Assembly (NCBI RefSeq): GCF_024521635.1
Contig: NW_026250411.1
Span: 62,001 to 126,000 of the forward strand
DNA from: Tricharina praecox
Lineage: Eukaryota
Direction: 5' to 3'
Length of the DNA: 64,000 bases
Shown here: piece by piece, positions 44,604 to 45,094 of the stretch
How positions within the stretch are numbered: the first letter of the stretch is position 1
How the letters are laid out: every line of letters begins with the position of its first letter
Program-made: the position numbers and the translations under genes
Notes under the pieces: generated by a model
Told to the model about the DNA's origin: nothing
Database searches by the model: none
What the model saw: the letters and a program-made list of their open reading frames with translations, nothing else

Positions 44604-44771
44604 TGACGTCAGTGGGCGGATGCGGACCCGTCGATGCAGGCTGAACGAAACGCCCAGCCACATTTTACCCCGACCTTGATTTCGCACGAACGGTGACATC
44701 GTATGGAATGATTCAGGTACTGTGTCCTATTGGTGCCAGGTTTTCCGAGTTGCCAGCGGAGAGCTTATAAA
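44604..44771 (+). promoter_or_regulatory. CRE palindrome (TGACGTCA, 44604-44611) and TATA box (TATAAA, 44766-44771) of microprotein gene
   Basis: Both are exact motifs upstream of a CA-rich leader containing an intron at 44878-44951. Confidence 0.6.
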
Positions 44772-44971
44772 GAAGCTTAAATCCTCCCCGTCTTTTATGT
44801 AGTAGCTCCATCCATCCTCAGCAACATCGAGAATACAAACAAACACTACCCATAAACACCACACTACCTACCACACAGTACGTCTTCAGCTCCTTTGCTT
44901 AGTATCGTCTGTTGGCGGTGACTTCTTACTGACGGAGTTGCGTTGCTTCAGAACCAGAACCACACATCAAC

Positions 44972-45094
44972 ATGCCCTTCACCTACAGCAAAGGCTACGG
45001 CGGTAAACGCTTCGGCTTCGGACTCTCAGCCAACAAACACGGCGTCCGGCCCCATACCCGGTTCAGGTTTTGCGGCCTGAACTGCTTCCGTTAA
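44972..45094 (+). CDS. 40-aa cationic microprotein (MPFTYSKGYGGKRFGFGLSANKHGVRPHTRFRFCGLNCFR)
   Basis: Not in the ORF track because it is under 60 aa. TATA box, 5'UTR intron GTACGT..TACTGAC..TTCAG (44878-44951), start context TCAACATG, strongly C-ending codons, TAA stop and a U-rich 3' region. Confidence 0.75.
   Translation: MPFTYSKGYGGKRFGFGLSANKHGVRPHTRFRFCGLNCFR

Follow-up and report, generated by a model that had tools for sequence, protein, structure and literature searches.

A spliced gene of Tricharina praecox very probably encodes a 40-residue cationic member of a conserved, unnamed Pezizomycotina family

Here we describe a small gene in a stretch of 64,000 nucleotides from Tricharina praecox (NCBI RefSeq assembly GCF_024521635.1, contig NW_026250411.1, positions 62,001 to 126,000 of the forward strand; hereafter the window, in whose own numbering positions are given). 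The gene has two exons, lies at 44811-45266 on the forward strand and very probably encodes a 40-residue protein of an unnamed Pezizomycotina family. It is spliced, transcribed and protein-coding, and it is an unannotated member of a family that is deposited but unnamed and uncharacterised. A first-pass annotation, made by a model from the letters alone, had proposed a hidden microprotein gene here, and the cAMP response element (CRE) palindrome, the TATAAA box, the CA-rich leader, the CAACATG start context and the open reading frame (ORF) all lie where it had placed them (Table 1). As it had expected for an ORF of this size, the gene is unannotated in its own genome, since the window's exact peptide is absent from a collection of 15 billion proteins.

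Eight public RNA runs from five studies contain part of 44700-45300; contigs were analysed for four of them (X1, X2, X3 and X7), and runs X4-X6 and X8, which hold small shares of the stretch, were left out of the contig comparison. In X1, X2 and X3, the three runs (from as many studies) with contigs across the leader, position 44877 is joined to 44952, and the 74-nt intron that had been read from the sequence (GTACGT ... CTGAC ... CAG) is thus excised in RNA. The contigs span 44736-45229 (X1, extending the exon 1 side furthest back), 44815-45216 (X2, with adapter letters directly before 44815), 44811-45185 (X3) and 45130-45266 (X7, ending at 45266 with adapter), although RNA contigs cannot define transcript ends. 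An AATAAT lies at 45216, near the 3' ends of the contigs. The spliced mRNA measures approximately 350-460 nt, and its sole ORF of at least 25 aa is the 40-aa coding sequence (CDS). In the spliced mRNA model an in-frame stop stands 14 codons 5' of the start codon. A single other ATG occurs upstream, at 44797, with a stop as its next codon, and 44811-44877 contains no ATG. Given this single ORF, the upstream stop and the ATG-stop at 44797, the 40-aa ORF is neither an upstream ORF (uORF) nor the terminal exon of a longer protein. The reading as a uORF peptide was rejected, as no main ORF follows downstream: the RNA contigs end at 45185-45266 and hold no other ORF of at least 25 aa. The k-mer depth of the gene's contigs was 2566 (X1) and 1920 (X2), compared with 148 for the adjoining upstream transcript in X2; contig k-mer depth is, however, unfit for ranking genes, so that high expression is graded as likely only. 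Transcripts were present in soil and wood-decay metatranscriptomes, and the one RNA variant, a T>C change at 45004 in X3, leaves the amino acid unchanged (GGT>GGC). The 40-aa ORF alone is not beyond chance, 32 ATG-initiated ORFs of at least 25 aa overlapping the surrounding 3 kb. What lifts the gene above chance is the removal of its intron in RNA, the retention of the ORF in 43 of 43 related loci, and ratios of non-synonymous to synonymous change (dN/dS) of 0.08 and 0.09 against close relatives.

Table 1 Features of the microprotein gene and its upstream region in the window.
Feature	Position	Strand	Evidence and remarks
CRE-like palindrome TGACGTCA	44604..44611	.	368 nt upstream of the ATG; putative link to the gene
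CCAAT box (ATTGG on +)	44729..44733	-	Inside the conserved block GATTGGTGCCAG (window, L006, L009); putative function
TATAAA box	44766..44771	+	Within GAGCTTATAAAGAAGCTTAAATCCTCC; conserved 3/3 (window, L006, L009)
Exon 1, non-coding CA-rich 5' leader	44811..44877	+	Pieces of RNA contigs X1, X2, X3; 5' end approximate
Intron of the 5' untranslated region (UTR), GT..AG, CTGAC branch site	44878..44951 (74 nt)	+	Joint 44877->44952 in contigs of X1, X2, X3
Exon 2: 20 nt of leader, CDS and 3'UTR of ~135-170 nt	44952..45266	+	3' end approximate, 45185-45266 by contig
CDS of the 40-aa microprotein, stop codon included	44972..45094	+	ORF, encodes MPFTYSKGYGGKRFGFGLSANKHGVRPHTRFRFCGLNCFR; CAACATG start context

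Codon usage and comparison with related loci both speak for a coding sequence. Of the 40 codons, 26 end in C (C3 0.65), a bias of the kind seen in highly expressed genes, against 0.25 and 0.15 in the other two frames of the same stretch; the highest value for an ORF of at least 200 aa in the window is 0.51 and the exon for ribosomal protein eL22 has 0.53, which bears out the earlier remark that codons here are C-ending as in ribosomal protein genes. A scan of metagenome contigs yielded 43 related loci, in all of which the ORF is intact and in 42 of which the stop directly follows ..CF[RK]; L038 has two extra residues at the end, and L037 carries an intron within the CDS. In 38 of the 43 loci no in-frame ATG occurs upstream before the next stop. 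Three relatives (L006, L007 and L009) are collinear with the window over approximately 40.5-48.7 kb by blastn, which picks out only the ORF or a block with a small nucleolar RNA (snoRNA) in loci that are more distant. We estimated dN/dS (omega) by Nei-Gojobori counts over gap-free pairs with a proportion of synonymous differences (pS) of 0.05-0.6 (n = 27). The window and L006 differ by 11 synonymous and four non-synonymous changes (dS 0.54, dN 0.05, omega 0.08), the window and L009 by 10 and four (omega 0.09), and omega was below 1 in 27 of 27 pairs and below 0.3 in 18. Spliced RNA is thus present, the ORF of the relatives is without frameshifts and dN/dS is far below 1 for the close relatives, the points on which the first-pass annotation had let its claim depend. 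By these counts the coding sequence is under strong purifying selection, so that the gene's relevant product is the peptide rather than the RNA alone.

An exhaustive phmmer search of 1.84 billion representative proteins (E ≤ 1e-3) returned 18 matches, 17 of them true; the remaining one, the repeat protein P0016, aligns over 15 residues and was judged spurious. The search gave E 7.6e-14 for the 86-aa Tuber aestivum model CUS11297.1, the closest named relative, with 75% identity. In 14 of the 17 the match sits at the extreme C-terminus of a longer model, Met-initiated and preceded by an unrelated low-complexity stretch, and these models are, judging from their alignment, over-extended gene calls. 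A profile search added 37 matches among proteins of 22-72 aa (E ≤ 0.01), 18 of them exactly 41 aa long, and 71 longer models among proteins of 80-2000 aa (E ≤ 0.001). Named members come from Pezizomycetes (Tuber), Leotiomycetes (Botrytis, Sclerotinia, Blumeria, Marssonina/Diplocarpon, Oculimacula), Dothideomycetes (Fulvia, Sphaerulina, Neodothiora, Delitschia), Sordariomycetes (Colletotrichum, Verticillium, Fusarium, Gaeumannomyces, Diaporthe, Cytospora, Xylariales, Hapsidospora) and Eurotiomycetes (Exophiala, Coccidioides), so that, going by the matched proteins, the family spans the classes of Pezizomycotina. No yeast, basidiomycete or bacterium was found among the named matches, a weak absence because such ORFs are rarely called.

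Full-length identity of 38-90% and the shared ..NCF[RK] end mark the window peptide as the same protein as this family, which includes free-standing 41-aa models from Colletotrichum higginsianum, Blumeria hordei, Fulvia fulva, Sphaerulina musiva and Marssonina coronariae; across fungal classes identity is 50-60%. The window peptide belongs to a 40-residue subtype (..GV-RPH..) without the extra basic residue after GV and with Cys34 kept, whereas Sordariomycete members have G at the Cys34 position and the motif RRGPWRF. Source names are all "hypothetical", "uncharacterized", "predicted" or "unnamed", except for a 63-aa model labelled CBM35 and the fused models, in which the family sequence is joined to a protein kinase, a DNA2/NAM7-type helicase, a PDZ protein or a fungal transcription factor (P0019, P0076, P0079 and P0104). 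In P0046 and P0048-P0052 (Botrytis, Sclerotinia, Colletotrichum caudatum) and in locus L037 (129-326) an intron lies in the last third of the CDS; the public models read through it and finish in unrelated residues, and the exon parts of L037 flank in-frame stops.

Pfam at E ≤ 10 gave no family for the window peptide or for 39 members, with one exception, a SMIM43 match in 1 of the 39 (E 0.077) that we take as chance. Literature searches by locus tag, peptide motif, DUF4236 and terms combining small ORFs (smORFs) with filamentous fungi returned nothing relevant, supplementary tables lying outside the search. With tblastn the peptide had no plasmid match, and its four weak phage matches (E 0.01-2, in hyaluronidase and hypothetical genes) are likewise put down to chance. 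A pattern scan of bacterial and archaeal genomes produced 56 pattern matches and no relative.

The window peptide contains eight K/R, no D/E and eight F/Y, with Cys at 34 and 38, in agreement with the composition first noted for it (8 K/R, no D/E, 8 aromatic residues). Statistics over 67 distinct members describe a uniform family of 40-45 residues, with a net charge of +6 to +10, an isoelectric point (pI) of 10.2-12.0, 5-10 F/Y/W, 4-9 Gly, 0-2 acidic residues and 1-3 Cys. M1, K7, R30, C38 and F39 are invariant (67/67 each) and all present in the window peptide, positions 26 and 40 are always K or R, and G10, G11, G15, G24, F31 and N37 occur in at least 90%. The two C-terminal Cys singled out by the first-pass annotation do occur in the window peptide, but only Cys38 is a family trait: position 34 is C in just 37 of the 67 members, so the two form no conserved pair, and the Cys count is one in 26 members, two in 29 and three in 12. 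The highest mean Kyte-Doolittle hydropathy over 15 residues reaches 0.39 across all members, from which we conclude that there is neither a signal peptide, as had been stated at the outset, nor a membrane helix. Two further ideas were dropped: a zinc site formed by H23, H28, C34 and C38, in which H28 and C34 are not conserved, and N-myristoylation, residue 2 being Pro in 56 of 67 members.

AlphaFold2 predicted the same antiparallel beta-meander from 39 and from 67 sequences, with a predicted local distance difference test (pLDDT) of 61.4 and 65.9, respectively, and a predicted template modelling score (pTM) of about 0.3. The predicted strands cover residues 5-10, 14-21 and 24-33, with a short one near 36-38, and the alternating RFRF and ITAD patterns would make the sheet amphipathic. 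Such a fold is plausible though not secure at these model scores, and it may form only on a partner. Foldseek with the first model gave no match at E ≤ 1e-3 (best 1.7). The wide VIA-align search with the second model reached at best Z 4.1, for generic four-stranded meanders (propeller blades; Pur-alpha Z 3.9 and 3.8), Z values that lie below the meaningful level and come from a low-confidence query model. A two-copy prediction made without the alignment scored 0.01 against a mark of 0.32 and is neutral on self-association.

Upstream of the gene, transcription would proceed from a TATA/CCAAT promoter, to which the CRE may or may not contribute. The contigs of X2 and X3 start 45-50 nt downstream of the TATA box (44815 and 44811). 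We compared 35 distinct upstream regions of 400 nt each, with duplicates collapsed: TATA[AT]A occurs in 15 of them, a 5'UTR intron, by pattern, in at least ten (the pattern overlooked the L009 donor GTACCT), and the CRE-like site in two, the window and L006. The position of the 5'UTR intron, its splice sites and the CT[GA]AC branch site are kept in the window, L006 and L009. The palindrome TGACGTCA is exact in the window and L006, and L009 differs by one mismatch (TGACATCA). The window holds two copies compared with 1.36 expected, and 44 of 100 shuffles reach two. The site furthermore sits in a divergent intergenic region common to the gene and an opposite-strand C/D snoRNA locus. Being at chance frequency, confined to the closest relatives and placed in a region common to the snoRNA, it leaves the ATF/CREB control suggested by the first-pass annotation as an idea, not a finding, and one that the sequence comparison does not support.

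The C/D-box snoRNA belongs to the snR60/Z15 family (RF00309; 44157-44253, reverse strand, 47.1 bits against a gathering cut-off of 41, E 4.5e-6) and lies 720 nt upstream. Its approximately 100 nt recur at 77-84% identity in the distant loci L001, L023-L026 and L034, where the microprotein ORF follows in every case after about 750-850 nt, and an X2 RNA contig ending within 44300-44335 is probably the snoRNA host transcript. Between snoRNA and microprotein gene, at 44490-44501, stands a telomere-repeat-like block, GGGCTTAGGGCT, which is exact within the window only there and recurs in L006 (3634-3645), L007 (3635-3646) and L009 (1902-1913). As a shared promoter element of ribosomal protein genes it was rejected, since it is exact only in these four sequences, is not enriched and is absent from the RPL22 promoter. 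The eL22 (RPL22) exon, recognised by eye from its translation, occupies 10193-10441 (reverse strand) of the window, its promoter reaching to about 11000 and carrying CTAGGGTT but not GGGCTTAGGGCT.

Further upstream, 43282-43785 (forward strand) encodes a small RING-finger protein (zf-RING_2, E 9.5e-6, just below the Pfam cut-off); after it, at 43790-43860, comes a low-complexity tract rich in purines (GGAAGG). Downstream, 47600-49855 (forward strand) encodes an NCS1-type cytosine/purine/uracil/allantoin permease (E 1.3e-85) that is syntenic in L003-L007 and L010. Upstream of the microprotein gene, on the same strand, seven loci of the 41-residue clade (L012, L015, L017, L020, L030, L032 and L043) carry a protein-kinase gene, at a distance of approximately 450-550 nt in six of them and 2.4 kb in L032, and in another clade an Asp/Glu racemase gene lies downstream of it.

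As to function, an abundant intracellular cationic beta-sheet peptide would bind a polyanionic partner through its basic and aromatic sheet. The putative partner would most likely be RNA or a ribonucleoprotein (RNP) such as the ribosome, a tentative assignment that we hold to be possible rather than probable. We favour RNA or RNP binding on the basis of the extreme pI, the lack of acidic residues, the GGRR and RFR motifs, the strong codon bias and a housekeeping-like conservation, the latter seen in the high identity across classes and in retention by Blumeria, whose genome is gene-poor and has undergone heavy gene loss. A less likely variant would be docking on an acidic membrane surface through the invariant C-terminal Cys-Phe-Arg/Lys, e.g., by S-acylation. 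The small basic ribosomal proteins eL39, eL41 and eL29 offer a functional analogy, being of the same size class with extreme pI and no acidic residues, and the codon bias of the microprotein gene is at least that of the eL22 gene in the window. They differ in that ribosomal proteins are universal, whereas the microprotein family is confined to Pezizomycotina among the named matches, and the 39 members searched have no ribosomal Pfam family and the family profile no match to a PDB chain.

Other explanations of the same sequence have to be weighed. The ORF could be incidental to a non-coding RNA or to part of the snoRNA locus, given the C/D snoRNA upstream on the other strand and the ease with which 40-aa ORFs arise by chance. 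Yet ORF length, start and stop are kept in all 43 loci while the flanks pass beyond blastn recognition outside the closest relatives, synonymous changes per site far exceed non-synonymous ones, and the third-position bias is specific to the frame, so that this evidence already contradicts a non-coding reading, which we give practically no credence. A small, strongly cationic peptide, rich in aromatic residues, with an amphipathic beta alternation and a Cys close to its end, transcribed in soil and decaying wood, also recalls an exported or membrane-active product, which could be an antimicrobial peptide, a toxin or an effector that leaves the cell without a signal peptide. Secreted peptides of this kind, however, typically evolve fast and in a lineage-specific manner, the opposite of 50-60% identity across classes and an omega of about 0.1, and the antimicrobial-peptide-like chemistry proposed by the first-pass annotation fits this conservation poorly. 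In addition, no member has a signal peptide or hydrophobic segment, the single Cys of 26 members excludes a disulfide-stabilised fold for those, and there is one locus per contig, with variable neighbours and no cluster; export is therefore very unlikely. Still less credible, although not quite as remote as the non-coding reading, is a processed or modified precursor, either of an a-factor-like lipopeptide pheromone or of a ribosomally made natural product. The length (about 40 aa), the initial MP.., the Cys near the C-terminus and the high transcript abundance, along with the missing signal peptide, do invite this comparison, as they recall the a-factor-type pheromone precursor genes of ascomycetes. 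But the invariant Cys has two residues after it (CF[RK]-stop) in 62 of 67 members and four to six in the remaining five, never the three of a CaaX box. Conservation moreover extends over the full length instead of being limited to a short core in a variable leader, and no modifying enzymes are conserved nearby.

Somewhat better placed, though improbable, is the proposal that the protein belongs, as a distant eukaryotic member, to the bacterial DUF4236 fold (PF14020; N-terminal MxFxxxK ... G..h.h.....G) and functions as DUF4236 does, a likeness already noted by the first-pass annotation. By eye both start with M-[PG]-[FL]-x-[FYW]-x-K and place Gly-rich turns between short amphipathic strands, and look-ups with a protein language model (window peptide and P0036) returned bacterial clusters bearing DUF4236 within the top three, with scores of about 0.80-0.87 and 143-161 of 256 features shared. 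In this Atlas look-up, however, a score below 0.9 counts as no more than a lead, and ten of ten matches in one family are also obtained by a third of shuffled proteins. For a direct comparison, PF14020 domains were collected from bacterial genomes (found in 2 of 5, 17 of 121 and 10 of 121 genomes; 29 in total), of which 23 were aligned, two L171 near-duplicates, one L184 near-duplicate, one truncated and two weak domains having been dropped. Aligned with hhalign against these 23, the 39-member profile gave a probability of 0.9% and E 0.062 over 7 of 55 columns. A DUF4236 hidden Markov model (HMM) built from the same 23 domains scored a mean of 2.0 bits (maximum 7.1) on the 67 fungal peptides and 0.5 bits on 1340 shuffles (95th percentile 3.6, maximum 11.3), so the real peptides are indistinguishable from shuffled ones. 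Moreover, hmmscan against Pfam, in which the gathering cut-off of PF14020 is 27 bits, found DUF4236 in 0 of 39 members even at E ≤ 10, and the scan of bacterial and archaeal genomes had shown no relative. On these four results membership in DUF4236 is not supported. The architectures differ as well: DUF4236 is a 55-position domain that ends in its hallmark PGTG, which has no fungal counterpart, and usually heads proteins of 66-732 aa, whereas the fungal peptide stands alone and has the terminus NCF[RK], which DUF4236 lacks. What they share, i.e., the M-G/P-aromatic-x-aromatic-x-K start, basic amphipathic strands of beta type and Gly turns, possibly reflects convergence, or a very remote resemblance, of short amphipathic strands linked by Gly turns; we know of no solved DUF4236 structure.

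Taking up again the reading of a small two-exon gene for a conserved Pezizomycotina protein, and the function proposed for it, several observations count against one or the other. Omega lies between 0.31 and 0.77 in 9 of the 27 pairs, which are near-saturated distant pairs or close pairs with few changes. Translation of the ORF is argued from conservation and the transcript and stays at the level of a probable reading. The proposed mechanism likewise leans on composition and on a low-confidence model (pLDDT 61-66, pTM about 0.3), with a partner that is putative. No PDB chain matches the family profile, although the PDB includes cryo-electron microscopy structures of ribosomes and respiratory complexes from fungi, in species not checked for the gene; the sole match, a superoxide dismutase at E = 2 over 10 residues, we regard as chance. 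The X1 contig starts at 44736, 30 nt upstream of the TATA box, so that initiation is not exclusively downstream of it. No motif common to the microprotein promoter and the RPL22 promoter of the window was found, which leaves membership in a ribosomal-protein regulon unsupported. Finally, no neighbour is common to all clades, and since neighbours differ between clades, synteny gives no hint to the function.

In conclusion, a protein of 40 residues that is kept across Pezizomycotina, the group comprising most plant-pathogenic, industrial and many medically relevant moulds, almost certainly has an important role. Its public models are mostly wrong, being extended, fused to neighbours or read through an intron, and as a consequence orthology pipelines, proteomics databases and knock-out collections miss the family. 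It is a concrete example of the conserved microproteins overlooked by eukaryotic annotation, and its defined product of 40-45 residues makes a clean target for tagging, deletion and binding studies. That the family represents either an unrecognised, Pezizomycotina-specific core microprotein, i.e., a stoichiometric, abundant beta-sheet component associated with RNA or the ribosome (or tethered to a membrane) that has escaped notice as gene callers skip it or extend it wrongly, or a eukaryotic offshoot of the DUF4236 fold seems rather unlikely at present; if the latter were true, it would be the first tractable eukaryotic model for DUF4236. Small, ancient within filamentous ascomycetes, strongly constrained by the counts above and systematically mis-annotated, this family merits experiments.

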